Positions 5,804 to 51,484 of a stretch of DNA of 61,081 nucleotides are shown in pieces. The stretch comes from a virus. Lineage: Duplodnaviria; Caudoviricetes. The position numbers and the translations under genes were made by a program. The notes below the pieces were generated by a model. It searched no databases, was not told where the DNA came from, and was given only the letters and a program-made list of their open reading frames with translations. Each line of letters begins with the position of its first letter. The stretch's first letter is position 1. The DNA lies in IMG/VR virus record IMGVR_UViG_3300039308_000035; one strand, 5' to 3'.

Positions 5804-5812
5804 AGAGTTCCC
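5804..5812 (-). promoter_or_regulatory. J-box-like late promoter element GGGAACTCT
   Basis: 24 nt upstream of ATG 5780; a second variant GGGAAGTCT lies at 5839-5847. Confidence 0.65.
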
Positions 5813-5857
5813 CAGTTGTCCCAGCTTGGGTTCCTTAAAGACTTCCCAGAGCGTGGA

Positions 5858-5886
5858 TTGACACCACTTAAAGAGCTGTTTACTGT
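5858..5886 (+). promoter_or_regulatory. Sigma70-type promoter
   Basis: TTGACA-17 nt-TACTGT, pointing antisense into the tRNA-like element. Confidence 0.6.
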
Positions 5887-5938
5887 GAAGACATGGGGCT
5901 GGTCATTCTAGTCCTGTCTCCTAAATTGGAGTAAAGGT

Positions 5939-6013
5939 GTGTCTCGTCTGGGACTCGAACCCAGAGCCTGGAACTTAGTAGGGACCTGCTCTGTCCGTTT
6001 GAGCTACGAGGGC
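5939..6013 (-). tRNA. Degenerate/pseudo tRNA, possibly Arg-derived; anticodon loop CT-ACT-AA
   Basis: Minus strand GCCCTCGTAGCTCAAACGGACAGAGCA...CTGGGTTCGAGTCCCAG has intact D and T arms, but mismatched acceptor and anticodon stems and no CCA. Confidence 0.6.
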
Positions 6014-6028
6014 ACAACACATATACAG

Positions 6029-6071
6029 CAAGGCAACCTTTTCTTTGGACGGGGGGGTCGCCTTGTTATTT
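6029..6071 (+). terminator. Hairpin/putative terminator
   Basis: CAAGGCAACC...GGTCGCCTTG followed by TTATTT. Confidence 0.4.
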
Positions 6072-6105
6072 CGTCGGCAGCAAAACCTGAAGTGCAGATC
6101 AGGTT

Positions 6106-9100
6106 TTACCAACCCCTCGATCGAAGCTGGTTTTTGCTGATGTCGTTATGCGCCTTAGTTGCCGCCTGCATGTCCTCAGCACTGCCCACATAAATATTGG
6201 GGCGATTGAGTCCCTGCTTAAAGACTGCGGTTAGAATATCGAGCTTGCTTGACAGATCTTTATTACCAGCCGCGATCGTGCTGATCGCCTGCGAGGACTG
6301 CTGTGATTGTCCTCCAGCTTGGATGTCGCTCATTGGCGATTTCAGATTGAGCGAGGGAGACTTGCTGCTTCGACTGAGATCGCTAATACCAGAAGCGTTG
6401 ATTCGATAGCTCATCACGCGCCCATCTGCCCCAATGTACTGACTTCTAGGGTCGAAATTGGCGTACTGCGCCTTGAGCCGATCGAGCTGGGTCGTGTGGT
6501 CAGCCGCGCTTCGCAATGGCTTATCTCGATCGGGTGAGTAGTCACGATCGGCGGGCCCGTCATAATCTGCCCCTTGAAAGCCAGTGGTTGAGTAGTTGTG
6601 GTACTCCACGCCACTGTGGTTTGGGTCTGTGGTTACCTGCTCATTCGATGCAGGCTTATCAGATGAACTGCTGCTCGAACTTGAAGACGTCGATCGCGCC
6701 TGTTGCCGTTGTGCTTCTGCCTCAACCTGCTGCTGTGCCTGCTTCTCGCGTGAAATCTGTTGCTGGGCGGCGAGGTTCTGTCGCGCTAATTGATTGAGCT
6801 GATCTTGCTGTGCAATGCTCTGATTAACTGCCTCAACCTGCTGCTTCCGCAGGTCAAGCACCTGCTGTAAGGCTGAAATTTCCTGAGCAGAAGCATTCCG
6901 GGCTTCAGCTTGCTTTAGTGCCGCCTCTGCCTCAAGTACATTAATTCTTGATTGAATTTGTTCTTTCTCCAACTCAATCGCCTTGATCTTCTCCTGCAGA
7001 TCAAGCTGCTGCCTCTGAGTTTCAAGCTGCTGCTCAAGCTGGTTTCCTTGCAGGTCAAGTGATTGCTGCTTGAGGCGTTCAACCTCATTCTGATTTCCAC
7101 TTGCTTCGGCAATGGCGATTTGAGTATTTAAACGCTCTGCCGCTAACGTGTTCAGTGACTCCTGTAAATCCGATTGTGCCGTTAACAAATCGGATTGAGA
7201 CTGATATGAATTTTTCTGTAAATCCAGTAGTTCAGAGGTGGTCTTAATCTTGGATTCTAGTGCCGAATATTGGTCCTCAATTGCCTTCACCGCAGCATCA
7301 CGCGCTGTCTGCTGTGCCTGGATCTCTTTATCCAATCGATCGAGGTTCAGTTGCCCCAACTCCTGAATTAAAGCCTTCTCTTTATCCGCTGCCTCCTGAG
7401 CTGAAATAGTTCCGGCTGCTCTAGCATCTCGGATTTGGGCTAATTCATTTTGTTTAGCAGCGATCGTCTGATTAGCTGATTCAAGTTGAATTTGCTCAAT
7501 CTGCTGAGCTGCTTCCTTCTCCCCTAGAACGCCTGACAGTTGTGCCTGTTTAACTGCAGCAATGCGGGTGTTCTGGCTGTTGGCGATCGCAGTTTCAGCT
7601 TCCTTCGTCGCATTCTCAATGTCATTTAATGCCTGCTTTCGGGCTGCAACTTCAGCATCAATTTGTTGGATTTTGAGCTGTTGTAGATCGGCTCCCAGTG
7701 TTGCAAGTCGCTTATTTGCCTCTTCTTCGTCTAAGACCCCTTGTGCCCTGAGCTGCTTAACTCCTGCTATCTCCTGTTGTTTTTGCTCAATCTGACTGCC
7801 GATCGTCTCCCGTTGAATTGCGGCAATCTGTTCAGCCGCTTCCTTCTCCCCTAGAACGCCTGCTGCCTGGGCTGCTTTAACGGCAATGATGCGATCGTTT
7901 TGGGCAGAGGTAATGGCGTTTTTCTGAGCTTCAGCCGATTGCTCAAAGTCTTTAATCTTGTCCTGATTGGCGTCTTTTTGTGCCTGTAACTCCTCATCAA
8001 TCTTTTGCAGGTTTAGCTGACTGAGCTTGTCCTGAATTTCAGACTCCTGCTGAGCTGCATCCTCTTTGCTAATCACGCCCTGCTGGAGCAGCTGCTGAAC
8101 CTGCTTTAATCGGCTCTGTTGCTGAGTAATCTCCTGATTGGTTGAACTCTGTTGAACTGCCGCAATTTGTTTCGCCGCTTCCTCTTCAGAAATTTTGCCT
8201 TCTAACTGTCGCTGCTTAATTGCTTGAATTCTGGCATTCTCCGATCGCTGGGTTGCTGCTTCTGCCTCCTGATTGGCTTTCTGGAGGTCCGAAATTTGCT
8301 GATCATTTGCCTGCTGCTTGGCAGTGGTGACGTTCTGCGCTGATTTAATTCGAGTCTGAGCTGTCTCTAACTCCAACTGCTGAAGTTGAGTCTGTAGCTC
8401 CTTCTCCTGGTCCGCTGAAAGTGTGGCGCTGTTTGGGTCGATCGCCTTCAGTTTGGCGTTGCGCTCCAACTCTGTTTTGATTTTGGCAATGCTGTCCTGA
8501 TTGAGCTTCAACTTCTGCTGCAAATAAGCCTGCTCTGCATCAAGTGACTGCTGCCGGGCCTGTTCTTCGGTGATTTGCCCTTTTGCTAATGCTTCAGTAA
8601 TCTGTATCTGCTTATCGCTGTAGCTCGATTCGATCTCCTGATTCGATTTTTTATAACTGGTGGCGATCGTCTCGTTGGTGGTGACAGCTTTATTGGCTAA
8701 ACCATCCAGCGCCGTTTTCTCCTGCTCGATCGCTGCTATCTGGTTCTCATAGCCTGCTTTTAGGGATTTGTAGGTATCCATGCCCAACTTTCCTGGGTCA
8801 AGGTTCTGCAAATTCTGCTTTGCCTGAGCCAGTGAATTATTGAGGGCGGATTGATAAGCCAGAACCTCTTTCTGAGCTTTGGATCGATCGGCTAGGAGGG
8901 CATTCTCTTCAGCCCGAATTGCCGCAACTGCTTTAGCATCCTTTGGATCAAGCCCTAGTTTGCGCTGCTCAATTTGTTTCAACTGAGCATCAATTTGCTT
9001 TAGTCCATTAATCGCATTATTTGGGTCAACTCGGAATTCGGCTGATTTTTGGGTAATACCTTGGACGCGATCGGAGAAGTCTTGCAAGGCTGCAAGCTGG

Positions 9101-11259
9101 TCATTTGCCTGCTTTTCACCGTTAGTGGAAAGCTTTGGAATCAAAGAACCAACTGCGTTGCCTACTGCACCAATTCCACCTGATGCCAGTCCCAACATTG
9201 CCTTGATTGGTGCAGGCAGGTTGTCATACTCTTTGCGAACCTTATTAATCTGCTCAATAATGACATCCACCCAATCTGCAGCAGGGGGTTTAGCTGGCAC
9301 AAGCTTATTGAGGTCAGGTGCATTGCCTGCTGCTTCTGCCAGGTCTGCGATCGATTTGTCTAGGGATTGAATTGAGGCGCGGGCGTCGGTGGCTCCGTCT
9401 TTGATCCTGTCTACAATTCTGTAGAAGACTAATGTGGCTACATAAGCAAGAGCAATTTGGGCAGCAAACACCCCAACTGTTTTTACTGTTGAGGCAAGCT
9501 GCGATTGAAAAAGCTTGATGTTTTCTGCTGACTTAAAGAAGGCAGCAGCGGCATCATAGGCAGCAAAAGCGGCTCTACCCACTGCTGCAACTAAGATTGC
9601 GTCGATCGACGTACTAAGCAGCTCTTCATTATCCGCAGCAAACTGGAGAGCCGCAGCAAATGTATTGAGTGCAGGCGTCCCTACTTCTACCCAAGTTTTA
9701 CCCATCGCAATCTGGAGATTGCCCAACGCATTTTCAAAGCGATTGGTGGCTGCTTCAGCCGAGTTCATTGCCTTGACAACGCCCGATTCTGTAAAGACCT
9801 TTAGCTGTTGAGCAAACCCAGCCAAGAAAGACTTAGAGTCAACCGTTCCAGTCGAGATCAGTCCTTTCAGTTCGGATGTTGTAACTCCCAATGCTGCCGC
9901 CGCTGCCTGGAATGTGCCTGGAACCCGCTCAGCAATCTGGTTTAGCTCTTCAAGCTGCACATTCCCAGAGCTTAAAATTTGCTGCAATGCCAGGAAAACG
10001 CCCTGTGTGTCGGCAGCGTTCAGTCCCATAACGGAAGCAGACTGAGAGACACCTGCAAAGATATCCTTTGTCTCCGATGCCGTCAGGTTTGCCATCGATG
10101 CAGCAGTGGAAAATTGCACAAATCCCGCAGCAGTTGCATCAAAGTTCAAACCTAAGTCGTTTGTGGTTTTAGACAGGTAGGCAAGATCCTCGCGCGCTCC
10201 CCCTGCTGACTTAGAAACGACTTGCAATTGATTGTTGAGAGTTTGAGCGGATTTGGCAGCGTTGAAGTTCTGCTCTAAATCACCAAAAAATCCATCAACA
10301 ATTTCAGAAGCATCTTGCCAAATACTGAACAACTGAGCTGCTTCAGCAAGTCCTTCAATAGCACGTTTAGCCGATTCTGCTGCTGATAACTGCCTTTCGA
10401 GTTTGTCATCAAACTCCGAAACCGCTTCACCTGCTTGCCTGATACTCTGTCCCGCTTCTTCTGCCGCACCAGCAATGCGATCGGCTCCAGAAGCAGCAGC
10501 AGTGGCAGCATCTTCAATCTTTTGTAAGTCGGCAATATATTCACCTAGCCAACTTTGCCCCATTTTGAACTCAATGCCCATATCTTTCGCAGCTTTGCGA
10601 ACTTGGGCAAATTCAGGGCTAAGCTGGGCAAGGGTTTCTAGTAAGGCATCGATCGAGTTGTCGATCAGCTCAACAACGGTCTGGAGAATATTGCCTGCAA
10701 ATTGGGCATTTTTGGCGATCGAGCGGAAGAAGTCTCCGACCAGGTTGATGTTGGCGGCAAACTGGTCAAGAACTGAGTCGATCGACTCAAAACCTGCCTC
10801 AATGCCTTTCAGGATAGGCTGAGCCAGTTTTGCGGCATTCATGCCAGCCGTCAAAATTTGGAATGCACCCTCTAGTTGGGAAAGCCCAGTTTTGTTGAGC
10901 GCTTCGCTCTGAAAGCCTGCCAAGATTGGGTTTTCAAACAGGTCATTGCCTAAAAATTGGGCAATTTGCCCCAGTTGCAATAGAGCAATGTCACCCAGAT
11001 CTTGAAATGAATTAGTGAGGTTACGGGTTAGCGACTCGCTGACAGACAACCCATTGTTCATCTCGTCAATGTCGCCAATCAGCCCGACAATCGTGCCTCT
11101 GACAATGCGGAACCCGGCAGCGTTAATTGTGTCGCCGCTGAAGAGATTGGTGATAGCTAATGCTGTTGTTTGCGACTCCTGACGGACTTTGCCCAACTCC
11201 TGACGAAGTTGAGACGAGTTGGCAGACAAAACAAGATCCAGGGTTCCAGCAGTGGGCAT
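6106..11259 (-). CDS. Tail tape measure protein
   Basis: 1717 aa, Ala/Gln-rich coiled coil; tape-measure motif LQQILSSGNVQLEELNQIAERVPG; downstream of the tail chaperones. Confidence 0.92.
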   Translation of the reverse strand: MPTAGTLDLVLSANSSQLRQELGKVRQESQTTALAITNLFSGDTINAAGFRIVRGTIVGLIGDIDEMNNGLSVSESLTRNLTNSFQDLGDIALLQLGQIAQFLGNDLFENPILAGFQSEALNKTGLSQLEGAFQILTAGMNAAKLAQPILKGIEAGFESIDSVLDQFAANINLVGDFFRSIAKNAQFAGNILQTVVELIDNSIDALLETLAQLSPEFAQVRKAAKDMGIEFKMGQSWLGEYIADLQKIEDAATAAASGADRIAGAAEEAGQSIRQAGEAVSEFDDKLERQLSAAESAKRAIEGLAEAAQLFSIWQDASEIVDGFFGDLEQNFNAAKSAQTLNNQLQVVSKSAGGAREDLAYLSKTTNDLGLNFDATAAGFVQFSTAASMANLTASETKDIFAGVSQSASVMGLNAADTQGVFLALQQILSSGNVQLEELNQIAERVPGTFQAAAAALGVTTSELKGLISTGTVDSKSFLAGFAQQLKVFTESGVVKAMNSAEAATNRFENALGNLQIAMGKTWVEVGTPALNTFAAALQFAADNEELLSTSIDAILVAAVGRAAFAAYDAAAAFFKSAENIKLFQSQLASTVKTVGVFAAQIALAYVATLVFYRIVDRIKDGATDARASIQSLDKSIADLAEAAGNAPDLNKLVPAKPPAADWVDVIIEQINKVRKEYDNLPAPIKAMLGLASGGIGAVGNAVGSLIPKLSTNGEKQANDQLAALQDFSDRVQGITQKSAEFRVDPNNAINGLKQIDAQLKQIEQRKLGLDPKDAKAVAAIRAEENALLADRSKAQKEVLAYQSALNNSLAQAKQNLQNLDPGKLGMDTYKSLKAGYENQIAAIEQEKTALDGLANKAVTTNETIATSYKKSNQEIESSYSDKQIQITEALAKGQITEEQARQQSLDAEQAYLQQKLKLNQDSIAKIKTELERNAKLKAIDPNSATLSADQEKELQTQLQQLELETAQTRIKSAQNVTTAKQQANDQQISDLQKANQEAEAATQRSENARIQAIKQRQLEGKISEEEAAKQIAAVQQSSTNQEITQQQSRLKQVQQLLQQGVISKEDAAQQESEIQDKLSQLNLQKIDEELQAQKDANQDKIKDFEQSAEAQKNAITSAQNDRIIAVKAAQAAGVLGEKEAAEQIAAIQRETIGSQIEQKQQEIAGVKQLRAQGVLDEEEANKRLATLGADLQQLKIQQIDAEVAARKQALNDIENATKEAETAIANSQNTRIAAVKQAQLSGVLGEKEAAQQIEQIQLESANQTIAAKQNELAQIRDARAAGTISAQEAADKEKALIQELGQLNLDRLDKEIQAQQTARDAAVKAIEDQYSALESKIKTTSELLDLQKNSYQSQSDLLTAQSDLQESLNTLAAERLNTQIAIAEASGNQNEVERLKQQSLDLQGNQLEQQLETQRQQLDLQEKIKAIELEKEQIQSRINVLEAEAALKQAEARNASAQEISALQQVLDLRKQQVEAVNQSIAQQDQLNQLARQNLAAQQQISREKQAQQQVEAEAQRQQARSTSSSSSSSSSDKPASNEQVTTDPNHSGVEYHNYSTTGFQGADYDGPADRDYSPDRDKPLRSAADHTTQLDRLKAQYANFDPRSQYIGADGRVMSYRINASGISDLSRSSKSPSLNLKSPMSDIQAGGQSQQSSQAISTIAAGNKDLSSKLDILTAVFKQGLNRPNIYVGSAEDMQAATKAHNDISKNQLRSRGW

Positions 11260-11285
11260 GATTTAAGGCTCGATTGCGCTGCTGG

Positions 11286-11294
11286 AGAGTTCCC
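11286..11294 (-). promoter_or_regulatory. J-box-like late promoter element GGGAACTCT
   Basis: 27 nt upstream of the tape measure ATG. Confidence 0.65.
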
Positions 11295-11301
11295 TTTGTA
11301 C

Positions 11302-11679
11302 TTAAATCTGATTTAAGTTGCGCTCATACGCCTTCAAATAAAATCCCTGAATATCGAAATCCTGAGCTGCGATCGTTGTCCAGGGTCGTCCAGCGATCGT
11401 CTTCCCATTGCGAAGCGTGTAGCCTTCGTGAACGGCTGATGCATACTCTGTATTCCAGCTGAAAACCGCCTCTAGGGGATTCGTGAACACCACCTGCTGA
11501 GACGATCGCAGCTGCCCCAGGTCAACAATATCCCGGCTTCCCTTCCATCCATCCCACTGTCGCGGCTCGCTAATGACTCGCGTAAACTCACGCCCTAACT
11601 GAAACGCAGTTTCCTGAAATGCTCGCTCAGCAGCAGTGTTGATCTCATCAACCTTCAGCGACAGCTTGTAGTTGCTCAT
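11302..11679 (-). CDS. HK97 gp10-like tail/neck component
   Basis: Motifs VDLGQLRSS, EYASAVHEG, GRPW. Confidence 0.7.
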   Translation of the reverse strand: MSNYKLSLKVDEINTAAERAFQETAFQLGREFTRVISEPRQWDGWKGSRDIVDLGQLRSSQQVVFTNPLEAVFSWNTEYASAVHEGYTLRNGKTIAGRPWTTIAAQDFDIQGFYLKAYERNLNQI

Positions 11680-12058
11680 TGGGCAGCCGTCCTAATTAAT
11701 TTCATATCCACAATCTCGATCGCCCAAGCGGGAATCTTGCGCTCACGAGATAGCTTCAGGAATGTGCGAGCGATCGCCTGGTCCAGCGCCTCTTTTGCCT
11801 GCTGTTGGTAGAGATGCTTTGCATAAGGGTTAAAATCTTCTGGCTCAACATCTGCACCCTTTGTTCCAGCAATGAAACTGCCTACCAGAGCGGTCGATGT
11901 AGAGTGGCGGCTTGCTGCCTCTAACTCATGTTGTTCTAGGGTGTTCAACGCTTGCTCAATTTCGATTAGCAAGCAATCCCCAAACCGCTTTCTACTGAAC
12001 CGCTTTTCACCCGGATAGGCAAGCTTCAGCTTCCAGTAGATTTCGCTCCAGTCAATTT
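11676..12058 (-). CDS. Tail assembly chaperone, frameshifted C-terminal (T) segment
   Basis: The -1 frame after A AAA AAG reads EIDWSEIYWKLKLAYPGEKRF...LLIEIEQ, continuous with ORF 11676-11972. Confidence 0.75.
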
Positions 12059-12454
12059 CTTTTTTCCGTTTCCCGCTGCTTCACTAGTTTGTGGCTCATC
12101 AGTTCTCCAGCGACGCTGTTCACCGATAGCAAACATAAACAACCCATCAAGCATTTCCATGTCTGGTTCGATCGTCTGGGCTTCTCCATCGATCGTTACT
12201 TCCCATTCAGAAGCCTCTGTTTTTTCAATCGTCCAGGTTTTATCAATTCGCTTCAAAAGGATTGTCACAATTCGCTGCTTCAGATAAATATCTGCCTGCA
12301 ACTCTGTCATGTCTTTGGTTTTCTCGTCCAGTGTTGCAGACATATCTCGCATTGCGATCTCTTCTGAGACTGTCAGGCATCCACGTTTTGGAATAAGAAT
12401 GCCAGCAATTAGTTCAGACTCGGGCTGGGTATAGGTCTTAAAGGGAAGTGCCAT
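12026..12454 (-). CDS. Tail assembly chaperone (G)
   Basis: Between tail tube and tape measure; ends in GKK with slippery AAAAAAG at 12059-12065. Confidence 0.75.
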   Translation of the reverse strand: MALPFKTYTQPESELIAGILIPKRGCLTVSEEIAMRDMSATLDEKTKDMTELQADIYLKQRIVTILLKRIDKTWTIEKTEASEWEVTIDGEAQTIEPDMEMLDGLFMFAIGEQRRWRTDEPQTSEAAGNGKKKLTGAKSTGS

Positions 12455-12668
12455 AAATTAAAAGTTTGGTATCGTAGGCTGGATTGGACAAGGTATCAGG
12501 AATTTCTACTGTGGCGTGATGCTGAGCATCTGTCGTGTAAAGCTTGTGCAGCCCTGGTTCGCATTCGTCATGTAAGACCAAAATCCCAACCGTCATTTCA
12601 CCTGCCTCAATCGTGCAATGGCAGGCAAAAACAACGGGATTGGTCAGGGCTGCGATCGGCTCACTCAT
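12438..12668 (-). CDS. Small hypothetical protein
   Basis: 76 aa, coupled to the tail tube stop codon. Confidence 0.5.
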   Translation of the reverse strand: MSEPIAALTNPVVFACHCTIEAGEMTVGILVLHDECEPGLHKLYTTDAQHHATVEIPDTLSNPAYDTKLLIYGTSL

Positions 12669-13372
12669 TAGGCAACAGCAGCATCTAATACAAGATCAGG
12701 TTTGCCGTTGAAGGTCAGGCTGATATTTCCGGTAATCACACCATCTGCGCTGATTTCCAATGGCAAGTCAGTGATAGAAGCCTTGCCTTTGTAGATGCGT
12801 CCCTTACTGTAGGCTGCGCTGATTTTGGGCAGCTCCAGCCAGACGTAGGCTTCACGCAGTTCTGTGAAGAGGTGCTCAGCAGTAGCAAAGCCAGCATCTT
12901 GAGGCACCCAGTTTCCAGGTAGCTCAAGGGTTTGCTCGATCGAAGCTGTCAGGCCGGTGGAATAGCCGTCTGAGTCGAAGTCAACGGCGCTGACTCGATT
13001 GCCCGATCGCCCAATATTGGCAGCGGTACGCCCTGCAAGTCGAAGTGGATAGACCGCAACAGAGCCAGTTGCAATGTCTTCAGGAATCTCGGGGACAGTT
13101 AGCGTGGTGTCGCCTGTTTCTGCATCAGCACTTAACTGAACAAGCACTGATTTTCCGGTTGTTGGCGCAACAAATGCCAGGAAGGACCCAGCCGGAATGA
13201 GCACGTCTGCTCCCAATGCCGGGACTGTAATTGTTGCAGAGCCGTTAATGTCTTTAGCGGCTGGAGCTGCGAGCGTGATTGTAGTTGCTTTGGGTTCGAT
13301 AGAAGAGCCTTCAGGTAGCATCGCAATGCTGACCTTAGTGCCTCTGCCGATTACGAAAGATGTTTTAGCCAT
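12668..13372 (-). CDS. Major tail tube protein
   Basis: Position before the chaperones; C-terminus GRIYKGKASITDLPLEISADGVITGNISLTFNGKP typical of tail tubes; ATG at 13372. Confidence 0.75.
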   Translation of the reverse strand: MAKTSFVIGRGTKVSIAMLPEGSSIEPKATTITLAAPAAKDINGSATITVPALGADVLIPAGSFLAFVAPTTGKSVLVQLSADAETGDTTLTVPEIPEDIATGSVAVYPLRLAGRTAANIGRSGNRVSAVDFDSDGYSTGLTASIEQTLELPGNWVPQDAGFATAEHLFTELREAYVWLELPKISAAYSKGRIYKGKASITDLPLEISADGVITGNISLTFNGKPDLVLDAAVA

Positions 13373-13396
13373 CGATGGGTCTCTCAAATCTGGCTG

Positions 13397-13430
13397 AGAG
13401 TTCCCTCGGCATAATTTGTCCGGGAATCCT
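13397..13430. promoter_or_regulatory. Back-to-back J-box-like elements
   Basis: GGGAACTCT on minus (13397-13405, 25 nt before the tail tube) and GGGAATCCT on plus (13422-13430, 24 nt before ATG 13454). Confidence 0.65.
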
Positions 13431-13453
13431 AGACTCAGTTTCCGGTTTCCGCC

Positions 13454-14362
13454 ATGCAGCCAGATTTCACCGAATTCAATGACGACGATCGCCAGAAGTT
13501 AGACAAACATCGCGTCTTACGTCTGTCACAACTGCCTCTGTTTCACGGCACAAACATTGGCTTAATAGATGGCATTGTGCATATTTCTTGCTTGACGGCA
13601 GAAAGCGTCGATCGGCTGTTGGAAGAAAAGATTGATGTGAAGTGGTGGGTCTGGACGGTTGCTGGCTCTCAATGCATCATCATGTGGTTTGCAAATCAAC
13701 AAGTTTGGGGATGGGAACGGGGGACTGAAACTTTCCCAAAGGCTTCTTCTGGAGATGACAATTTGGAACCGTTCGAGGATGGTCATTTAGAATCATTACT
13801 ATCCACTGTCATCATTCCAGAGGAATCGGACATGACCGCCGCAACACTCGATCGCCCGCAAGCTCAGTCATCTACAGCGACTCAAACCCGAACCAAACTA
13901 AGCAAGCTGCTGCCAGGCGCGGCTCTGCGACACATTGCAGAAGACATGGAGCAAAGTGTAGATACAATTCGCGCATGGGTTCAGGAACACAATTATTTGA
14001 TTATCCTGTTCGGCGGTGAAGAGGTTATCCCTAATGATGTGGCATTGGAGGCATACGACCACTTCACGCGCATCATGCAAGAGAATCGTTTGCGGAAGCG
14101 TGGTTTGCTAACGGTTGCAGAACCACCGATTGAAGTGATGCCAGAGACAGCGCCGCAAACCAACGGGAAAGCATCTGAAGCGGCGATCGAGTCAGTTGAA
14201 GCTAAGCTCGAAACTGAGCCTGCTCCGACAAACACCAAGGCTACCCGAAAAACTACAGCAAAAACTGACTCAGACAAATCTCAGACCAAACCAAAAACTA
14301 CCAGCACAAGAGCGAAGGGTAGGACTTCTGCTAAAGCAAAACCAGCTAACACGGTTGAGTAG
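13454..14362 (+). CDS. Hypothetical protein with basic Lys/Thr-rich tail
   Basis: 302-aa ORF opposite to the structural operon; histone-H1-like C-terminus. Confidence 0.65.
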   Translation: MQPDFTEFNDDDRQKLDKHRVLRLSQLPLFHGTNIGLIDGIVHISCLTAESVDRLLEEKIDVKWWVWTVAGSQCIIMWFANQQVWGWERGTETFPKASSGDDNLEPFEDGHLESLLSTVIIPEESDMTAATLDRPQAQSSTATQTRTKLSKLLPGAALRHIAEDMEQSVDTIRAWVQEHNYLIILFGGEEVIPNDVALEAYDHFTRIMQENRLRKRGLLTVAEPPIEVMPETAPQTNGKASEAAIESVEAKLETEPAPTNTKATRKTTAKTDSDKSQTKPKTTSTRAKGRTSAKAKPANTVE

Positions 14363-14436
14363 CTTCTGTCAATGTGACAGTTCAGCTCAAAACGGCCTGG
14401 ACTAGATTTGGCATACATAGCCAATTGGTTATGAAA

Positions 14437-14498
14437 TGAAACCCTGATTTTCTCGTAAAGCCAACTGGCACACTCACAACGAGACGATCAGGGTTTCA
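14437..14498. terminator. Long hairpin between convergent genes
   Basis: TGAAACCCTGAT/ATCAGGGTTTCA plus inner TCTCGT/ACGAGA stem. Confidence 0.5.
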
Positions 14499-14545
14499 GC
14501 TTTTAAAATTCGTGCTTAGTTGCTTTATTACGCAAATAATCTGGA

Positions 14546-14968
14546 CTAATTTTCATTCCAGGTCAGCACCGTTTCACTAACTACGAAACTCAAAGTCTCA
14601 ATATTGTCAAGCCCTGCTAGTCGCATCTGCCGATTAACGCGATCGACCTTCAACTCTGCAAACTGACCGATCGTATCCATCACTGTATCCAGGTAGCCCA
14701 ATGCCGTTTTCTCAATGTCCCACTGTTTCAGGGCAATCAGATGAGCAAAGGTTTGCTGATAGCCATCCAGCACATATTTAACAGGGATGTCGATCGATGG
14801 CTGGATGACGATTTCCAATCCTGAAACTTTGGGTTCTTCTGGATATGGATTTGAACCATCTTCAATCCGAATTGCTGGAGTGGTTTGTCCGCCGCTGAAA
14901 GTGTAGCTGCCCAGTTCGTTGCTAAGTGCTTCTTGCAAGGTGTCCCGAATCTCTTCTGGTGTAATCAT
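14546..14968 (-). CDS. Putative tail terminator/completion protein
   Basis: 140 aa; size and position upstream of the tail tube. Confidence 0.5.
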   Translation of the reverse strand: MITPEEIRDTLQEALSNELGSYTFSGGQTTPAIRIEDGSNPYPEEPKVSGLEIVIQPSIDIPVKYVLDGYQQTFAHLIALKQWDIEKTALGYLDTVMDTIGQFAELKVDRVNRQMRLAGLDNIETLSFVVSETVLTWNEN

Positions 14969-15186
14969 TCCGCTTCCTCAACATCTTCTAGTGTTAGATC
15001 AATAAAGGTCATAGCAATCGGTTTACCTGCTTCGTTAAATTCGACTGCTTCAATTTTCATGGCTTCTTCCCTAGTGGTTGGAGTGCCATCTGCATCGCGA
15101 AAATAGCAGATCGCATAAGCCCCGCCATTCGGCAATGGCTCATCATCGGTTGCATCAATCCGTTCCGCTGTTGGTTGCTCGGTCAT
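14965..15186 (-). CDS. Small acidic protein, candidate immunity/partner of the MuF protein
   Basis: 73 aa, overlaps the MuF 3' end; PNGGAYAICYFRDADG motif. Confidence 0.55.
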   Translation of the reverse strand: MTEQPTAERIDATDDEPLPNGGAYAICYFRDADGTPTTREEAMKIEAVEFNEAGKPIAMTFIDLTLEDVEEAE

Positions 15187-18100
15187 GCTCCCTCGCTATC
15201 TGCTCAATATCTTTCATGATTCTGCGCTGCTGTGCCTCTAAGCGGTCAACCGCAATTCCTCGCTTCTGTCCTCGTTCTCTGGCTTCACGGCGTTTCTGAA
15301 TTTCAAGGTTCACTTCCGCCAACTCGTCCTTCAGAGTTTGCAAACGCCGTTGCCGCTGTTGATAATCCTGCGCTACCTGTTGGCGTTGCTGCTGTCTCGC
15401 TTCCTCTTCCTCTGTTGCCTGAACTTTGGCCGCAACCTGCTTAATCTTCAATAAATCTGCTATCGTCTCGCGCGCCTGGTCTAGCTCAGCCTTAATGTCT
15501 GCTGCTGTCCGTGCCTTGCCGTTGACTTCGTAGATTGTCGGTTCTGAGCGATCGCGCTCAATCCGCTTCTGCAAAGCATCAAGCACTGCCAGTGAATCTT
15601 CAATCTCACGAGCAATGGCGGTACGAGTTTGGGTTGTTTCAGTGGTGAACGCTTCTCTGGCCCTGCGATAGAGTTCAGCTTGGTCGATGATGGAGCGCGG
15701 ATCAACGCCTTCCTCATTTAATAGGAGCTGCACAAAGTTGCGGTTGAACTCTTCCAGCTCCGTCACCAGTTGGTTGCCATAGCGCATCACATCAACTGCT
15801 TTAATTTGGGATGGGTCTTTCAAAAGTTGCGCCAATTGCCGATCGCTCAACCTACCCTCGTCTGCTAAAGCATCACGAATTTGCTGCCATTGCTGAAGCT
15901 GCTGCTGTGCCTGTTCTAGGGTTTGCTGTTTGACTTGATCCGGATATTGCAGTCGTTGTTCAATCAGGTTTGCTCCGCCTTTAACCTGTGCAACAAGTGT
16001 TGTAATTTTCTCTGCCAACCTCTCAAGTCGTTCTGTGCGGCTCTTTCCTGGCTCTCTCGCCAACACGATCGCCAAGTCATCTGGCAAGTCAGATTCCCAA
16101 TTCCGGCGATCGACGAGCCATGCCACAGAGCCAGGTTGAAGTGTGGTCAAAATCTGGAGACGATCGCTCATCTCCTTCAACCTGTCCTCAACGATTGCCT
16201 GTACGTTATTAATCGCGTTCTGCTTCTGGCTGTTGTAGTTATCGGTAATCTGCTGAGTTTGCTGCGATTGTGCGGCAAGTCTATCTGTGAACTGTTGCCT
16301 TACTTCTCGATATTGCTCAACCTGTTGAGGTAGCTTACCTTGAGCCACGCGGGTTGACTTGATGACGTTGTATCTGGCTCTCTGGTCATCGCTCAGATCA
16401 TCTAGCTTGGCAGGCAAGCGAGACAGTCGAGCTTGTAGGTCTGTAAGCTTGCTTCGACTGCTTTTGACTCTTGACTCTAGATTCCCAAGACTTTCTGCCA
16501 GTGCCTCAATTTGCTGGATGCGTGGCTGTAATGCCTGACGGTGAAGGTCTGCAACGCTAACGCCTCCCTGTTGAGCATTAATGGCAGCTCGCAGTCTCAA
16601 CAGTTCTCGCAATGCCTGCGATCGTTCTGGAGATTGGGGCAAGCCTGCTAATTCCTGCTCTGCCTGGGATGCTGATTGCTGTAACTGGTTTACAGCCTCG
16701 GTAATTTTCTGCCCCTGGCTCGACAATTTCAGTGATTCCTTGCGAGTTGCTAGATCAGCCAGCGTTTGCTGCAGTTCACTCAGGTTTGCCCGCACTTTGG
16801 CAGCAGTGGTACCAATCTTCTCCAGGTCTTTCAGCTCTCGATCGACTGCCTTCAGTTGCCGATTGGTTTCCTTAATTCGGGCTGGAACCTCTGAGAAATA
16901 AGGCTTATTAAATGGATTTAGCAGTTGCGCTGACCGCTGCTCGAGTTCCTCAACTTGTCCCTCTATGCGGTTGATTGTTTCCTCTTGTGCCCGGCTGCGG
17001 CTGATACCATCCTCTGCTTGAACCACAATCTTGGGTTGGTTGATTCGCCCGATCGCCTGCTGAATCTTCTTCGGGCTGCGTTGCTGCTGGGCAATAGTTT
17101 CTGCCTGCTCTCGCTGCTGCTTGCTCTGCTCTGTCAGGTCAAAGTTTCGGTTCCTGAGATTGCTAATGATTTCTGGGCTGCGTGTATCTGGTTCGCGTGG
17201 GGGGAGTGGCTCTTCAGGGTGTCTGTAATTGAGCATCCGAGCAATGATTTCATAACGGGCTCGGTTGAATTTCTTAAGACGTTTTGAATCAACAAAAAAC
17301 TGAGCCACACTATCTGCAAAATCGGCAGCAGGTGAATCAAACCCATAAGTTGTGATCGGCCTGCCTTCCTCCATTGCTTTTGCATAGAGCGAGCCTTTAG
17401 GCGGGTCGAGCTGCCCCCACTGCTGATATGCATAGAGGTAAGCCATCTGGCGCAATGTGTCTTCCACCTTGCCTCTGCCACCGTGGAGGGTAACGCTCGC
17501 ATCTTCAAAATTAATCGTTGCCGGAACGGGGCCGACCGGCAGCTTCAAACGCTTGCGCCAGAACTCCTCAGAAGGAGATCTCTCTTTAACGATCGCAATA
17601 TTCTTAGTCGCTTGGAGCAGGTTATCTGGCAGATCCAGATCAACCAGTTTACGGATTAAATCTAAGCTTGATGAATTGGGTTTAAGCTCTGGAACGCTCC
17701 AGTTTAGACCCATAAAATTGAATGTTTGCCGTCCCGACTCCTTGCTGATAGCCGCCTTAATGTCTGGAACGATCGATTGGCTAAATTCTGTAGAGTCGCT
17801 CGCATCAAAGATCTTTGCCTGACTGTTATCAAATAAGATGGTTTCTCCATCTACGGAAATCGCATCATAACCCTGATTTTTTAAGAACTGCCTGCGCTTA
17901 TCATCCAAATCGGGGTTACGTTTTCTCGGTACTTTCGTCTTTGCAACTGCTTCCCGATTCAATTTGAAATATTCAATGTATGCATCAAAATCATCAAACA
18001 GCTTTGGATTCTTGATATCAACATACATCTTCAAATAAACAGGGTTGCCTGTGCGCTGCGTCAGAGTTGCAAAGTATCGCGCCTCTTCTATGTCGTTTGT

Positions 18101-21634: not shown

Positions 21635-21640
21635 GCCCTC

Positions 21641-21649
21641 AGAATTCCC
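21641..21649 (-). promoter_or_regulatory. J-box-like element GGGAATTCT
   Basis: Only 7 nt upstream of the MuF ATG. Confidence 0.45.
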
Positions 21650-21683
21650 GAAGCCCGATCTGCGGTTCAGCTTTGGGCGATCG

Positions 21684-21992: not shown

Positions 21993-21994
21993 AG

Positions 21995-24327: not shown

Positions 24328-24331
24328 GGGT

Positions 24332-25715: not shown

Positions 25716-25718
25716 GGC

Positions 25719-29133: not shown

Positions 29134-29146
29134 AGCCCAGCCAAAC

Positions 29147-30767: not shown

Positions 30768-30802
30768 GTGGGAATGGGCGATCGCTCTATCCGTCAGAAT
30801 TC

Positions 30803-35684: not shown

Positions 35685-35724
35685 AGAGTTCCTGATGTGT
35701 AACTAAATGGCTCTTATGTTGCAG
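35685..35724. promoter_or_regulatory. J-box variant (AGGAACTCT on minus, 35685-35693) abutting a dif-like 28-bp site (35697-35724)
   Basis: GTGTAACTAAA-TGGCTC-TTATGTTGCAG, 11-6-11 layout. Confidence 0.55.
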
Positions 35725-38726: not shown

Positions 38727-39084
38727 ACAAAAAATTGGGGTTCTCTGCTGCGAGAGTTCCCTGACGGAAAAAGTGGAAGAGTGATCGGTTGATGGATCTT
38801 AGTGGAAGTGGGCAGCAATATAGGTTGCGATCGAATTTCCATGACTAGTGCAAACCAAGCACACTGCTAGGAATGGCAAAACCATAGTATGGCGGGTTCT
38901 GGAAATGTCCAAAACTGACTTAACTTTTCGATGTAGCAGATCCTCGTCCAATTCAACTCGATGAGTCCAGCCGGCGATCAGCACTCTCCTAATTTGTCCT
39001 GATGAACTTGGCTCAATCAGAGCAACGCGATGTAAAAGCGGCAAAAACTCAACGTAGACTAGTATTACGCTCAGTGAGGTCGCG

Positions 39085-47739: not shown

Positions 47740-47758
47740 TCTTTTCTTGCAGTGAGCT

Positions 47759-47783
47759 ATGGGGCATTAAGCCCCATTTTTTG
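47759..47783 (+). terminator. Intrinsic terminator
   Basis: ATGGGGC-ATTAA-GCCCCAT followed by a T run. Confidence 0.6.
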
Positions 47784-47788
47784 TAGAT

Positions 47789-48031
47789 ATGAATCCTCAG
47801 ATCCTCAAGCAAATCTGTCTAGGATTGACAGGCACTCTATTAGGTGTGACAGTCCATCACGCTACAAATTGGCTGTTCATTAAATACCCTGCCTCATTTA
47901 TTTTGGGGCATCTGATCAGCATTGCGATCGTACTTTTCGGGCTGTATCTGCTGCGAGATGCAATCCAAGATTTTTTAGGCATCCAGATCAACTTAATTCC
48001 CCGCAGACAACAGGGAGGTAAAACACCATGA
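47789..48031 (+). CDS. Two-TM small membrane protein
   Basis: Two hydrophobic segments; ATGA-coupled to the FtsK gene. Confidence 0.65.
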   Translation: MNPQILKQICLGLTGTLLGVTVHHATNWLFIKYPASFILGHLISIAIVLFGLYLLRDAIQDFLGIQINLIPRRQQGGKTP

Positions 48032-50301
48032 CCTTAGCCCAAAAGGTTTGGGAACGTGACCAATTACGGAAAGAGCAGCGCACCTTAACAGTCTGGACAT
48101 TTGCCCTGCTTGGTGGAGCAACCTGCTCTGCTCTGATGTGGGGATTTCCTTTCAATGCACAAACCAAAACTCTGTATGGAATGCTGGCAGTTGGTTCCGC
48201 TGGCACTGCACTCGCTCTGGCTCATTCATCCTGCCGGATTGCCGAAGAACTCAAACCCGTGGAGGAAGACGTTGCCGCATACCGCAAGGTGAGCCAAACC
48301 ACGAATCGCGGTGCAATCGGGCTACGAGCAAAACAAATGCTCAGGGCAATAGCAGCACCCTCACAACCTCAAGTGATCCAGCAATTACCCGAATGGTTCG
48401 ATAAAACTTGTGATGCCGTCGAGCGTGTTTTCAGGCGGGCACAGCTACCCGTTGAGGTTATAGGGATTGAGCAGACTGAAACTGAGATTCACTATGTTTT
48501 GGAACGTCGATCGAATGAGCCAAGTTTGGCAGTTTTTCTAGTGAAAGGACAAACCCTATCAACAGAATTAATGCTGGAAGCCGGATTGTGCAAGGCTCAA
48601 CTAAAAATTCTGCCTTTCAAACTGGTTTTGATTGCGCCAATACAAGAGCCTCAGCTAGTTGAGCAGTCATTCAATCTGTTGCATCAGTTTTTAATGCAGA
48701 ATCAACAGAAAACAGTCCGTCAATCTACACAAACTATTGCTGTCCCTCACCGTGAGATAAAAGAGGAGATATCTGCAGGTTCAGTTGAGCCAACCCATCC
48801 AGACACAACAACCATTGGACAAACGATCGCCTCAACTCTGCAAGCCTACGGCATTAATACACAGGTGATTGATGCAATTGAAGGCATGGCAATCGATCGC
48901 TATTGGGTGCAGCTGCCACCAGGGAAACGAGTTGCAGAAATTGAAAAGCACGCTAATGAATTATGGCTAAACTTGCAGCTTTCACAATCTCCCATGATCA
49001 GCATTGACCGTGGAGCCGTGGCGATCGATGTTCCTCGCAAAGATCGGAAGTTCTGCAAGTTTACTGACTATGTTCAGTTGGAAGGCAACCGATCGAGCGC
49101 GGAAGAACTGGTTGCAGTGATTGGCTTAGATTTGCTCGGTAACGTGGTAGAACTCAACATCGCGTCACCTGACTCCTGCCAGGTCAGAGGCGGCGGCTGC
49201 ACAGGTAGCGGAAAATCTGAAGGCATTGCGTCACTGATCCTGAGCTTGGCGCATCGCTACCCACCCGAGGAACTGCAAATCTACATTGCAGACGGCAAAA
49301 TGCACACCTACACCGAACTGGAGCGGCTGCCTCATCTAGCGATGCAGATTGCTCGCACTCCAGACGAATTGATAACAATGGCAACGATCGTTGCTAATCA
49401 AATGGATGAGCGATATGGCAAAACATTCGCTGAGTATGGTTGTGCCGACATCAAGACCTATCGCAAGAAATCAGGCTTCATTCTGCCTCGCATTTTGTTC
49501 ATCATCGATGAGTATGGCGACTTCAGAAATCAGTTCATCTCTGCTGCCAGAACAACAGAATTCTCTAGGTTAGAGGCAACCTGCACTCGCATTGGACAGA
49601 AAGGGAGATCTAGCGGCATCCATGAAGGCATTTTTACTCAGAAGCCATCGGTCGAGGTTTTGGATTCAGAACTTCGATCTCAGCTTAAAGCAGCACTCGC
49701 TTTCAAGATGGAATTTCCCCAGGAATCTGCCTGCATCCTTGGCGATTCCAATATGAAGGCAGACAAGCTATTAGGGAAAGGTGACGGCATTCTTGCTTAT
49801 GGCTCTGAGGAAATCCGCTTCCAAGGGTTGTTCTGCGGCATTGAAGACGGACTGCTGCCGGGACTAATCGATCGCTGCCTGTCCGTCTATCAAGGCTATC
49901 CCACGGTTGAAGTGCAAGCCATTCCTGTCCCTGCTCCGCAGGCCTCGGAGAATGACCCCTACAGCTACCGTTACCCGCCGAACTGGGGTTACATCAGCCA
50001 ACTCACTAAGCAGATGACCGATGGTTACTGCTGCTTTCCAGGCTGCGCTAATCAAGCAACAGAGACGCATCATGCGATGTACGAAGAAGACGGCAAGCCG
50101 ATCGTCTCCAATCCCGTTCCTGGCAGGCATGTCTATCCCCTTTGCGACATCCATCACGGCAAAGAACATCCACGGGGGGCGCACAACCCGAAGAACTGGA
50201 CAAAGGGGACGTGCAAAGAGCCGCTGGAAATTGACTCTCGCAACACTCCTGACTATCACAAGCTGTTAATTGCGGGCTGGCAGGAAAAGTTGTCACAGTA
50301 A
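48028..50301 (+). CDS. FtsK/SpoIIIE-family DNA translocase with N-terminal TMs and C-terminal HNH-like domain
   Basis: GGCTGSGKS, ILFIIDEY, GRSSGIH..TQKPS, KLLGKGDG; C-terminus RYPPNW...CCFPGC...HH...LCDIHH. Confidence 0.88.
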   Translation: MTLAQKVWERDQLRKEQRTLTVWTFALLGGATCSALMWGFPFNAQTKTLYGMLAVGSAGTALALAHSSCRIAEELKPVEEDVAAYRKVSQTTNRGAIGLRAKQMLRAIAAPSQPQVIQQLPEWFDKTCDAVERVFRRAQLPVEVIGIEQTETEIHYVLERRSNEPSLAVFLVKGQTLSTELMLEAGLCKAQLKILPFKLVLIAPIQEPQLVEQSFNLLHQFLMQNQQKTVRQSTQTIAVPHREIKEEISAGSVEPTHPDTTTIGQTIASTLQAYGINTQVIDAIEGMAIDRYWVQLPPGKRVAEIEKHANELWLNLQLSQSPMISIDRGAVAIDVPRKDRKFCKFTDYVQLEGNRSSAEELVAVIGLDLLGNVVELNIASPDSCQVRGGGCTGSGKSEGIASLILSLAHRYPPEELQIYIADGKMHTYTELERLPHLAMQIARTPDELITMATIVANQMDERYGKTFAEYGCADIKTYRKKSGFILPRILFIIDEYGDFRNQFISAARTTEFSRLEATCTRIGQKGRSSGIHEGIFTQKPSVEVLDSELRSQLKAALAFKMEFPQESACILGDSNMKADKLLGKGDGILAYGSEEIRFQGLFCGIEDGLLPGLIDRCLSVYQGYPTVEVQAIPVPAPQASENDPYSYRYPPNWGYISQLTKQMTDGYCCFPGCANQATETHHAMYEEDGKPIVSNPVPGRHVYPLCDIHHGKEHPRGAHNPKNWTKGTCKEPLEIDSRNTPDYHKLLIAGWQEKLSQ

Positions 50302-50356
50302 GGGAGTCTTAATACTCGCACTGTTCTAGGGGACAGATCATCAGGCAATTCTTTCG

Positions 50357-51238
50357 TTAAGACGGATTGAAAGTGCCACCGCGTTTATTAGCTTCAACCT
50401 TAAATTCATGCTTGCAATGCAAACATTGTGTCTTTGTTTTGCCAAGTCCAACAGACACATCTTTTCCACAGTAAGGGCAGGCCCCAACTAAGCTAGATGT
50501 CCATTCATCGACACCTAGAAGAAATCCTAAAAATACGATGATCGCTGCAAACACTGCTCCGAATAGGGAGAAAAACACAAGAATCAGACCTGTAACGAAC
50601 GCCGCAGCAGTTCCCAATCCTAAGCGCTCCGAAAACTCCATTCGTTTAAACTTGACTTTTGTAGGCTGTGGATTGGGGCTTACTTCAGGAATTGGTGCAA
50701 CGGTAGGGAGTGGCTGATTGGGATTCCATTGATAGGCACATTTCATGCAAGTTAGGTTAATGTCATTTGCTCCAATAAACCCACCTGCTAACCCTACAGG
50801 ACCTAGCAGAACAGCTCCGACGATCGCATTACCTCCACTGAACCCCTTCTTTTGCACCATAATCTGTGTGGACTTGCAGCGTGGGCAGCGGATTGTTTCT
50901 TCTTCCGGCTCACTTTGTTGGACAGAACTAGCCACTGGCGGAGCCAACTGCACTCCTAGCTGAATCTCTTCAATCCAGCTCGGCATCACTTCGCCTGTCT
51001 GCTGTCCACAAATTTTGACAAGCTTAATCCCTTTTGGCTGAAGGCTGGATAAGCCTTTCTGAATGAAGCCAACAACAGCCCTTTGATTCGGTGGTGCAAC
51101 TGATTCAATCAAAAGCTGCAAGCAATTATTTTTAAGCACAGCCTGAGCTGTTAATCCCTTTGGCTGAAACGATTGATTGATGAGAGCAGCAATTGCTTGC
51201 GGGTCACCTTGCCTGGCGAGCTGCGATAGATCACTCAT
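50357..51238 (-). CDS. Membrane protein with two zinc ribbons
   Basis: CPRC...KKGFSGGNAIVGAVLLGPVG...CMKC, two TMs, CPYC...CLHC; GGGCACTTT element at 51266-51274. Confidence 0.7.
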   Translation of the reverse strand: MSDLSQLARQGDPQAIAALINQSFQPKGLTAQAVLKNNCLQLLIESVAPPNQRAVVGFIQKGLSSLQPKGIKLVKICGQQTGEVMPSWIEEIQLGVQLAPPVASSVQQSEPEEETIRCPRCKSTQIMVQKKGFSGGNAIVGAVLLGPVGLAGGFIGANDINLTCMKCAYQWNPNQPLPTVAPIPEVSPNPQPTKVKFKRMEFSERLGLGTAAAFVTGLILVFFSLFGAVFAAIIVFLGFLLGVDEWTSSLVGACPYCGKDVSVGLGKTKTQCLHCKHEFKVEANKRGGTFNPS

Positions 51239-51484
51239 AACTTCTCCCGTGGAATGGATGAGTTTAAAGTGCCCAGAAATGAGATGAGCCACCCCGAAAC
51301 AGCAGCTTTCCACGGGAGCGATCGGAGTGGCTCAACTTGATTCTGCCCAATCCAGCAGGCGATCGCTTTGTTCTAGGGGATAGTTCACAGTATTGAATTT
51401 TGCACAAACGCTATATCAATACAATGAAATGCTGTTTAGCTGATTAGCCGTAATGCTGATTTCTGGCGAGTTACAGGAATCAGG

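Follow-up and report, generated by a model that had tools for sequence, protein, structure and literature searches.

The 61,081-nucleotide stretch of viral DNA considered here (IMG/VR record IMGVR_UViG_3300039308_000035; hereafter the window) makes up most of a ~63-kb prophage of a filamentous cyanobacterium. It carries a short sequence, or box, that recurs in front of virion genes, and it also carries a gene for a predicted group 3 sigma factor of the sigma-70 family. The box resembles the J-Box promoter element of Nostoc punctiforme SigJ. We consider it probable, though by no means certain, that the boxes are promoters of the J-Box class and that the phage sigma factor directs them after induction, as a switch for late gene expression.

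There are five exact copies of the 9-mer GGGAACTCT in the window, at 5804, 11286, 13397, 28287 and 38753, and all of them are on the minus strand. Shuffled sequences contain a mean of 0.38 copies, and none of 100 shuffles reaches five. The 9-mer is unenriched over the entire host genome (49 copies versus ~45 expected), and all five copies on contig C1 of that genome fall inside the prophage. When k-mers were counted blindly in the 70 nucleotides upstream of all called genes, the top 8-mer was GGAACTCT, for which six of seven occurrences are upstream of genes and gene-oriented, and the top hexamer was GGGAAC. There are also five matches to the more general pattern GGGAAYNNT in the sense orientation within a zone 25-50 nucleotides before start codons, versus a mean of 0.20 for 200 dinucleotide shuffles, none of which reaches five. 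The exact copies and an additional site at 13422 all conform to GGGAAYNCT, and each is located on the same strand as the gene that follows, 32-35 nucleotides from its ATG (distances are counted throughout from the first G of the box to the start codon). Chance as the origin of the boxes is ruled out by the shuffle tests. The possibility that they are copies of a longer repeat was likewise rejected, because the flanks of the five exact copies are alike only in the box and in a CAG at positions 13-17.

The exact copy at 5804..5812 (minus strand, as are the other four) is located 32 nucleotides before a 163-amino acid gene (5289-5780) at the head of the distal tail block, and that at 11286..11294 lies within a 42-nucleotide intergenic gap, 35 nucleotides before the tape measure gene (6106-11259, minus strand). 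The copy at 13397..13405 precedes the tail tube ATG (13372; gene 12668-13387, minus strand) by 33 nucleotides. Back to back with it is the plus-strand box GGGAATCCT (13422..13430), which is 32 nucleotides before the plus-strand gene 13454-14362. Orthologues of this gene in three of the related prophages introduced below (G041, G057 and G059) are likewise boxed. The two boxes, which share a 66-nucleotide gap (13388-13453), together make an imperfect palindrome and would be a pair of divergent promoters, one for the tail tube gene and one for 13454-14362. The copy at 28287..28295 is found 35 nucleotides before the gene 27589-28260, which heads a head block that includes the major capsid gene (25719-26864, minus strand), and the orthologue of 27589-28260 in G041 is preceded by GGGAACGTT at 38 nucleotides. 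The remaining copy (38753..38761) is 35 nucleotides before a 96-amino acid gene (38436-38726) whose product has two hydrophobic stretches, and the syntenic gene in G041 has GGGAATTTT at this same distance.

The window contains approximately six strong boxes and six weaker ones. Two of the weaker six begin with AGG. One of these, AGGAATTCT (30796..30804, minus strand), is 37 nucleotides before the portal ATG (30767; gene 29292-30809, minus strand), and portal genes of relatives are boxed too, with GGGAATCAT in G041 and AGGAATACT in G057. The other, AGGAACTCT (35685..35693, minus strand), is 33 nucleotides before a tyrosine recombinase gene (34800-35660), whose orthologues in G041 and G060 carry GGG boxes. 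Two further sites have a GGGC form, with GGGCAY being frequent in G041 and G059. These are the candidate GGGCATTCT (32911..32919, plus strand), located 34 nucleotides before the ATG (32945) of a small open reading frame (ORF) on the plus strand, and the weak candidate GGGCACTTT (51266..51274, minus strand), which is outside the late region and 36 nucleotides before an in-frame ATG (51238) of a zinc-ribbon gene (50357-51313). The last two depart from the usual distance. The gene at the terS position (32148-32831) has the box GGGAACCCT (32878..32886, minus strand) 55 nucleotides ahead of its called start, and it is also boxed in G057, G059 and G060. The box GGGAATTCT (21641..21649, minus strand) is only 15 nucleotides before the ATG of a 2159-amino acid MuF fusion (15155-21634, minus strand), and this ATG is exactly position 16 of the box.

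An earlier note made from the sequence of the window had named these 12 sites and placed the box always on the coding strand, 24-29, 47 or 7 nucleotides ahead of the genes. All 12 are in the sense orientation, and a recount of the distances agrees within one base of counting convention. Its gene labels are upheld by Pfam and PHROGs for the tape measure, tail tube, MuF, portal and tyrosine recombinase, whereas no family match backs 'distal tail', 'scaffold', 'holin-like' and 'terS', which are names given by position alone.

The boxes span 5.8-38.8 kb and precede virion, lysis-region and recombinase genes. In the plus-strand replication and early genes from 39 to 61 kb there is no box except the weak candidate at 51266. 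The combination of a phage-borne sigma gene with a shared box ahead of late units, and not ahead of early or replication units, is what would be expected of a late-gene sigma system. The minus-strand virion gene region (1..32831), which encodes packaging, head, MuF, tail tube, tape measure and distal tail functions, is cut by the boxes into at least five units. This layout fits the part of the earlier proposal in which late transcription relies on many sigma-specific promoters, since many internal promoters would split the late region into such units.

Four related prophages were compared with the window, namely G041, G057 (an IMG/VR provirus), G059 and G060, and their TerL proteins are 68%, 71%, 76% and 54% identical, respectively, to that of the window. 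The G041 prophage is mosaic but syntenic, with identities of 66% for the portal, 88% for an HU-like protein and 67% for the sigma factor, and the sigma factors of the other three are ~40-49% identical. The family of sigma homologues is small (49-67% identity); one member is on the chromosome of G041, a genome of the same family, and a public source lists this protein as from Leptolyngbya ohadii. The exact 9-mer GGGAACTCT is not conserved in G041. The boxes of this prophage keep only the core, at 32-40 nucleotides from their genes (GGGAACGTT, GGGAACGCT, GGGAATCAT, GGGAACCAT and GGGAATTTT), and the motif was therefore redefined as GGG[A/C]AYNNT, which we take to be the probable functional core.

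In the upstream zone used for the window there are six matches to GGGAAYNNT in G041, four in G057 and four in G060, and in each case none of 200 shuffles reaches the count. Across all five phages, GGG[AC]AYNNT is found 41 times in the sense orientation within 60 nucleotides of start codons, compared with 6.6 expected, and 15 times in the antisense orientation. More than half of the sense sites (22 of 41) are at 30-39 nucleotides. The variant AGGAAYNNT is found in the zone three times in G057, three times in G059 and seven times in G060, counts reached by 0, 1 and 0 of 200 shuffles, and only once in G041, which is not above chance. The late boxes of G060 (loci L115-L117) are mostly AGG-initial, and therefore the opening G of GGG varies within the family.

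Boxes are found at orthologous places in these phages. The 13454-type gene is boxed in all four phages that have it, the gene at the terS position in four of five, the portal gene in three of four, the recombinase gene in three of five and the 27589-type head gene in both of two. The free positions of the box drift while these places stay boxed, and the flavour at these positions differs from phage to phage, with TCT in the window, GTT or GCT in G041 and GAT in G059.

To describe the anatomy of the box, 31 sites from the five phages were anchored on GGG, and in this set GGG, A5 and T9 are kept by construction of the pattern. Position 16, counted from the first G, is A or G in 28 of the 31 sites and is often inside CAG, and 19 of the sites have G at position 10. 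There is no -35 element, as alignment of the 45 nucleotides upstream of these sites yields no column above 0.3 bit. If position 16 is +1, then T9 falls at -7, A5 at -11 and GGG at -15 to -13. This would make the box a -10 hexamer with its two key bases, preceded by an extended -10 element, which is the architecture of the J-Box class. In four of 147 motif hits, including that of MuF, an ATG exactly at position 16 begins an ORF of 60 amino acids or more. These four cases would constitute a second distance class giving leaderless mRNAs, and the MuF mRNA, with its ATG at the predicted start point, is a candidate leaderless transcript.

The J-Box of N. punctiforme SigJ is GGGaAtacT, in which GGG is the extended -10 element, and the accessible text of the study describes it as forward-oriented, with a weak AT-rich -35 region and transcription starting 10 bp from the hexamer centre (PMC6495340). 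The same text calls GGG and the hexamer A and T absolutely or almost absolutely conserved (PMC6495340). The 9-mer GGGAACTCT agrees with GGGaAtacT at seven of nine positions, including all of the bases that are described there as conserved. Thus, the J-Box resemblance recognised in the earlier note goes beyond the letters of one sequence: the bases fixed across five prophages (GGG, A5 and T9) are the conserved ones of the J-Box, the -35 element is missing, position 16 is a purine and the host has a J-Box set of its own. Both elements have GGG followed by a hexamer with a fixed A as its second base and a fixed T as its sixth, a forward orientation and no useful -35 element (PMC6495340). They differ in that the boxes of the window reside in a prophage before virion genes, at a start-codon distance fixed at ~32-38 or 15 nucleotides, and in that the likely reader is a phage sigma factor outside the SigJ clade. 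In addition, position 10 prefers G in the phage boxes and A in the boxes of the host.

The regular spacing raises the possibility that the box acts on RNA, perhaps as a processing site or as a translation-linked leader element in long late transcripts whose few promoters lie further upstream. The start-codon distance is unusually fixed, with the 22 sites at 30-39 nucleotides contrasting with host J-Boxes that range from 23 to 141 nucleotides, and several boxes lie in same-strand gene gaps only ~35-40 nucleotides long. Against this, the conserved bases correspond base for base to a DNA promoter element (extended -10, A at -11 and T at -7), and outward-facing boxes are found at divergent gene pairs such as 13397/13422. 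Moreover, an ATG exactly at position 16 in the second distance class leaves no RNA before the start codon, and aligned leaders are alike only in the CAG at positions 13-17. A role at the RNA level therefore seems highly improbable to us.

The sigma gene is located at 36096-36830, as the earlier note had stated, on the plus strand, and its product is 244 amino acids long from a conserved Met. The protein matches Pfam Sigma70_r2 (47 bits, cut-off 24), and it has no match to Pfam region 4, which some homologues do have. It has neither region 1.1 nor a long N-terminus. The signature PY..GE..H.LRD...PRRWQ in regions 2.4-3.0 is common to the phage sigma factor, host SigF and the host SigJ-like protein and is absent from group 2, which supports assignment of the phage protein to group 3. 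On TIGR02980, the SigB-F-G subfamily model, it scores 101 against a cut-off of 234.35. The host has two proteins above the cut-off of the cyanobacterial SigF model NF005644, with 422 and 387 bits, and the phage protein is 36% identical to the former over 138 amino acids and 30% identical to the latter over 229. In a maximum-likelihood tree, the host protein on contig C68 groups with the proteins of Synechocystis, Microcystis and Thermosynechococcus, each a single copy, in what is the SigF clade, and that on contig C76 groups with the second Nostoc paralogue. We label the latter clade SigJ-like, in a tree that holds no named SigJ sequence, on the basis that Synechocystis is reported to have sigF only (PMC6495340).

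The phage-type sigma factors form a clade separate from the SigF and SigJ-like clades (support 97/92), and this clade takes in low-scoring extra copies from two Nostoc genomes. Several Nostoc loci (L023-L026, L084 and G062/G066) have extra SigF-like genes that score 150-182 bits on NF005644. At least two of these genes group with the phage-type sigma factors, and several of the loci are boxed in the upstream zone. This suggests that the sigma/box system is widespread in prophages of heterocyst-forming cyanobacteria. A tblastn search of a phage collection with the phage sigma factor gave 89 matching records, of which three are named 'Cyanophage', and all are below 60% identity, so by this comparison the protein has no close cultured relative in the collection.

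In alignments, the region 4.2 helix of the phage sigma factor lacks the basic residues of SigF and SigJ, and a weak region 4.2 would fit promoters without a -35 element. In sigma-70 proteins, the residues that follow region 2.4 read the extended -10 element. By analogy, the PRRW stretch that is kept in the phage protein could read GGG.

Boxes track the phage-type sigma gene across loci. Loci were collected from the sigma alignment together with two viral loci, with ~10-kb flanks, and the 70 loci of at least 8 kb were used. Those whose sigma factor matches that of the phage with an E-value of 1e-30 or lower (n = 16) were defined as phage-type. A box in the upstream zone is found in 12 of these 16 loci (23 hits per 478 genes) versus two of the other 54 loci (two hits per 1077 genes). 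Most of the other 54 surround genes for host SigF or for other sigma factors, and some lie outside the cyanobacteria.

According to the mechanism that we favour, early genes would lead, after induction, to expression of the sigma operon, and the phage sigma factor would then steer host core RNA polymerase to J-Box-type promoters that lack a -35 element. In these promoters GGG would be the extended -10 element at -15 to -13 and AAYNNT the -10 hexamer, with A at -11 and T at -7, and transcription would begin at position 16 from the first G. Such promoters would head at least five late units, a lysis-region gene and the recombinase gene. Thus the packaging/portal, head, MuF, tail tube, tape measure and distal tail blocks, the lysis-region gene and the recombinase gene might each have a start of their own, with a leader of ~17-20 nucleotides per block and none for MuF.

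The host also appears to use boxes of this class. Outside the prophage, intergenic GGGAAYNNT is found within 100 nucleotides of start codons 103 times in the sense orientation versus 46 times in the antisense orientation. The top host variant is the canonical GGGAATACT, for which 16 of 48 copies are in promoter-like places, and there are 44 copies of the phage 9-mer GGGAACTCT outside the prophage, eight of which are promoter-like. A pilB-like gene of the host (MshEN domain, 674-amino acid frame) has GGGAACCTT 22 nucleotides before its ATG, and the gene for an EpsH exosortase has the exact phage 9-mer at 38 nucleotides. Other host genes behind GGGAATACT or GGGAACTCT encode a STAS protein, hybrid histidine kinases, a GGDEF-EAL protein and a glycosyltransferase. 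Elsewhere, a SigJ-dependent J-Box promoter in N. punctiforme serves the crtB operon and is located before the upstream gene Npun_F0455, as given in the accessible part of that report (PMC12188702). Position 10 is A in 54% of 110 host sites compared with 15% of copies in coding regions.

These findings provide grounds for a different reader, namely a host holoenzyme with SigF or the SigJ-like protein. The phage sigma factor would then have another task, perhaps reprogramming host genes or a small early or middle set, and virion expression would follow the developmental state of the host. Such a scheme is encouraged by the fact that the host encodes both of these sigma factors, by its canonical J-Box set and by the presence of the phage 9-mer before eight host genes, including that for the exosortase. 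Furthermore, the phage sigma factor is outside both clades and has C-E in region 2.4 where SigF and SigJ have I-R. However, the in-zone box tracks the phage-type sigma gene across loci, the flavours that distinguish one phage from another at free positions are explained more simply by a phage-borne reader, and the G at position 10 of phage boxes differs from the A of host boxes. On balance, we consider reading by host holoenzymes unlikely. The difference at position 10 implies that the two regulons may be partly insulated, and recognition of phage boxes by the host sigma factors, or the reverse, is plausible but not assured.

Another candidate for the molecule that acts at the box is a phage transcription factor. 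The prophage encodes a CRP-like protein (39085-39798) that matches Pfam HTH_Crp_2, and a gene at 36824-37543 (plus strand) is conserved in its coupling to sigma, overlapping the sigma stop codon in the window and located beside sigma in G041, G057, G059 and G060. Either product might bind the box and activate or repress the late units. The known CRP-type site is palindromic. The box, in contrast, is asymmetric, single and strictly gene-oriented, and its position fits a -10 element with a start at the conserved purine. We therefore give very little weight to this explanation. The product of 36824-37543 has no match in Pfam, PHROGs or NCBIfam. Its structural model (predicted local distance difference test, pLDDT, 86.9) has a helical domain and a small five-stranded beta-barrel, and the barrel gives weak Foldseek matches to KOW, Tudor and SH3 domains (best E-value 6e-3). 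In the Atlas it falls in unnamed cyanobacterial clusters. A possible role for the protein is that of a transcription accessory factor.

Several observations weigh against direction of the boxes by the phage sigma factor, or against individual parts of the case for it. One-mismatch variants of GGGAACTCT are not enriched as a class (12 versus a shuffle mean of 13.9), so that the six weaker sites are argued for by their position and by relatives, and not by similarity. Similarly, the sites at 13422, 30796, 32911 and 51266 are each two positions off GGGAACTCT, as is frequent by chance, and their support comes from position, the kept invariant bases and relatives. The earlier observation is confirmed, with these caveats on the near variants. 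The two AGG sites of the window, taken by themselves, are at chance level, as AGGAAYNNT is found once in the upstream zone and this count is reached by 41 of 200 shuffles. The general pattern was broadened with G041 already in view, which leaves G057, G059 and G060 as the clean tests, and in G059 there are only two matches to GGGAAYNNT, a count reached by 10 of 200 shuffles. Four of the 16 phage-type sigma loci have no in-zone box within 10 kb, and the Fisher value of 1.4e-8 for the sigma-box association is overstated, as the loci are related to one another and vary in base composition.

The sigma factor itself provides further grounds for doubt. Its best NCBIfam model is cyanobacterial SigF (NF005644), with 125.9 bits against a cut-off of 261. 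The earlier note described the protein as 'SigJ/SigF-like'. The resemblance is distant, and its separate clade indicates that it is an orthologue of neither. Given the low score, the separate clade and the altered residues of region 2.4, its specificity could differ from the J-Box. Because the host has SigF, a SigJ-like protein and 44 copies of GGGAACTCT, the phage sigma factor is not required by sequence alone. Finally, promoter function, the start point and the choice of the phage sigma factor over host SigJ or SigF as the reader are all predictions from sequence. A search of public sequencing runs listed two DNA-type runs and none of RNA that contains this DNA.

The region around the sigma gene has additional features that may relate to its expression. 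A terminator-like hairpin of 12 bp followed by a T-run is located at 36046-36085 (plus strand) and ends ~10 nucleotides before the sigma ATG. It lies between an A-run and the T-run, with a predicted energy of -19.4 kcal/mol and a z-score of -4.5, and its arms are partly conserved in G041, where the T-run is missing. There is no room between the hairpin and the sigma ATG for a separate promoter, and therefore sigma expression may need read-through or antitermination. General Pfam and PHROGs scans gave no match to antiterminator families among the proteins of the window, which is weak evidence for the suggestion of the earlier note that the late promoters stand in place of antitermination. Upstream of the hairpin, on the sigma strand, there is a small ORF (35825-35956) of 43 codons with two CxxC pairs resembling a zinc ribbon, which clashes with a 92-amino acid ORF on the minus strand (35782-36060). 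Located 68 nucleotides before this small ORF is GGGTACTTT (35757-35765, plus strand), which has a GGGTA form like that of SigB/SigF sites and, at position 16, a purine. This candidate for an autoregulatory box has no evident conservation in the relatives. A scan of 32-44 kb for sigma-70-type promoters returned fewer matches than shuffled sequences and is therefore no guide to promoters there.

The window corresponds to C1:10525-71605 within a 5.9-Mb cyanobacterial genome of 90 contigs. A 25-bp direct repeat at C1:10122-10146 and C1:73120-73144, overlapping the 3' end of tRNA-Arg(CCT), is located ~400 nucleotides to the left and ~1.5 kb to the right of the window. These repeats are likely attachment sites, which suggests that the prophage is inserted in tRNA-Arg and slightly overhangs both ends of the window. 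A 375-amino acid gene that adjoins tRNA-Arg has no Pfam match, and the sole recognisable tyrosine recombinase is the mid-element gene at 34800-35660. The repeat GCGATCGC is abundant in the sequence.

By Pfam and PHROGs matches, the minus-strand virion region is of the siphovirus type, and the tape measure, tail tube, MuF, major capsid, portal and TerL (30803-32176, minus strand) genes were assigned in this manner. The packaging genes are followed by genes for an HU-like protein, the tyrosine recombinase, the sigma factor and the CRP-like regulator, and beyond these is a plus-strand block with FtsK-like, primase-like and exonuclease genes. ARAGORN finds a tRNA gene (5939-6012, minus strand), called as Ser with the unusual anticodon ACT, in the interval that separates the tape measure gene from the 5804 box. 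This tRNA is also the sole Rfam match that reaches its threshold (31 bits versus 29).

Phage sigma factors that act on late promoters are a known theme. The T4 protein gp55 is a phage sigma factor that acts on host core polymerase and reads short late promoters without a -35 element. It is a minimal sigma factor, and it requires the sliding clamp and gp33. The two systems are alike in having a lone short -10-type box repeated before late units, a phage-encoded sigma factor and host core polymerase. They differ in that the protein of the window is a full-length group 3 sigma factor and in that its box either came from a host regulon or is common to both. A full-text literature search gave no paper linking a J-Box-type promoter to a phage.

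Another counterpart is the marine cyanosiphovirus P-SS2, which has a diverged group 3 sigma gene, ORF 003, next to terL (PMC2784084). The authors expected this sigma factor to read a specific regulon, and the accessible text names no target motif (PMC2784084). Both are cyanobacterial siphoviruses with a group 3 sigma gene near the packaging genes, the two proteins being likened here by description alone, and the difference is that a candidate motif and regulon are defined for the sigma factor of the window (PMC2784084). Sigma factors of Bacillus phages that resemble SigF and SigG act on the host sporulation network, as described in the part of the report available (PMC9429907). The resemblance is that of a phage copy of a developmental group 3 sigma factor of the host, with the attendant idea of developmental cross-talk (PMC9429907). 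Products of the Bacillus phage genes annotated as SigF or SigG are ~26-31% identical to the sigma factor of the window. The host phylum is different, spores take the place of motile filaments, and the sigma factor of the window has a candidate regulon within its own phage.

The targets of the P-SS2 sigma factor were left open in 2009, judging from the accessible text (PMC2784084), and the sigma factor described here gains a concrete and testable regulon. At least four relatives, which come from Leptolyngbya-like, Oculatella-like and other filamentous cyanobacteria, have the same design. Compact promoters of ~16 bp that need no -35 element, together with a matching sigma factor, might also serve engineers of cyanobacteria as an orthogonal expression pair.

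Boxes of this class also serve motility and surface genes of the host, so this prophage is a natural setting for asking how a developmental sigma regulon comes to be shared or insulated by a virus. A more tentative idea, which we regard as doubtful at present, is that the prophage and the motility programme of its host have a promoter language in common, such that virus release is coupled to the dispersal of filaments. If so, the phage sigma factor would, on induction, also fire host J-Box genes such as the pilB-like gene and that for the exosortase, and host SigJ, made as motile filaments form, would fire virion genes. The flavour that each phage has at the free positions of its boxes would then be a tuning knob, set between insulation from the host and cross-talk with it.

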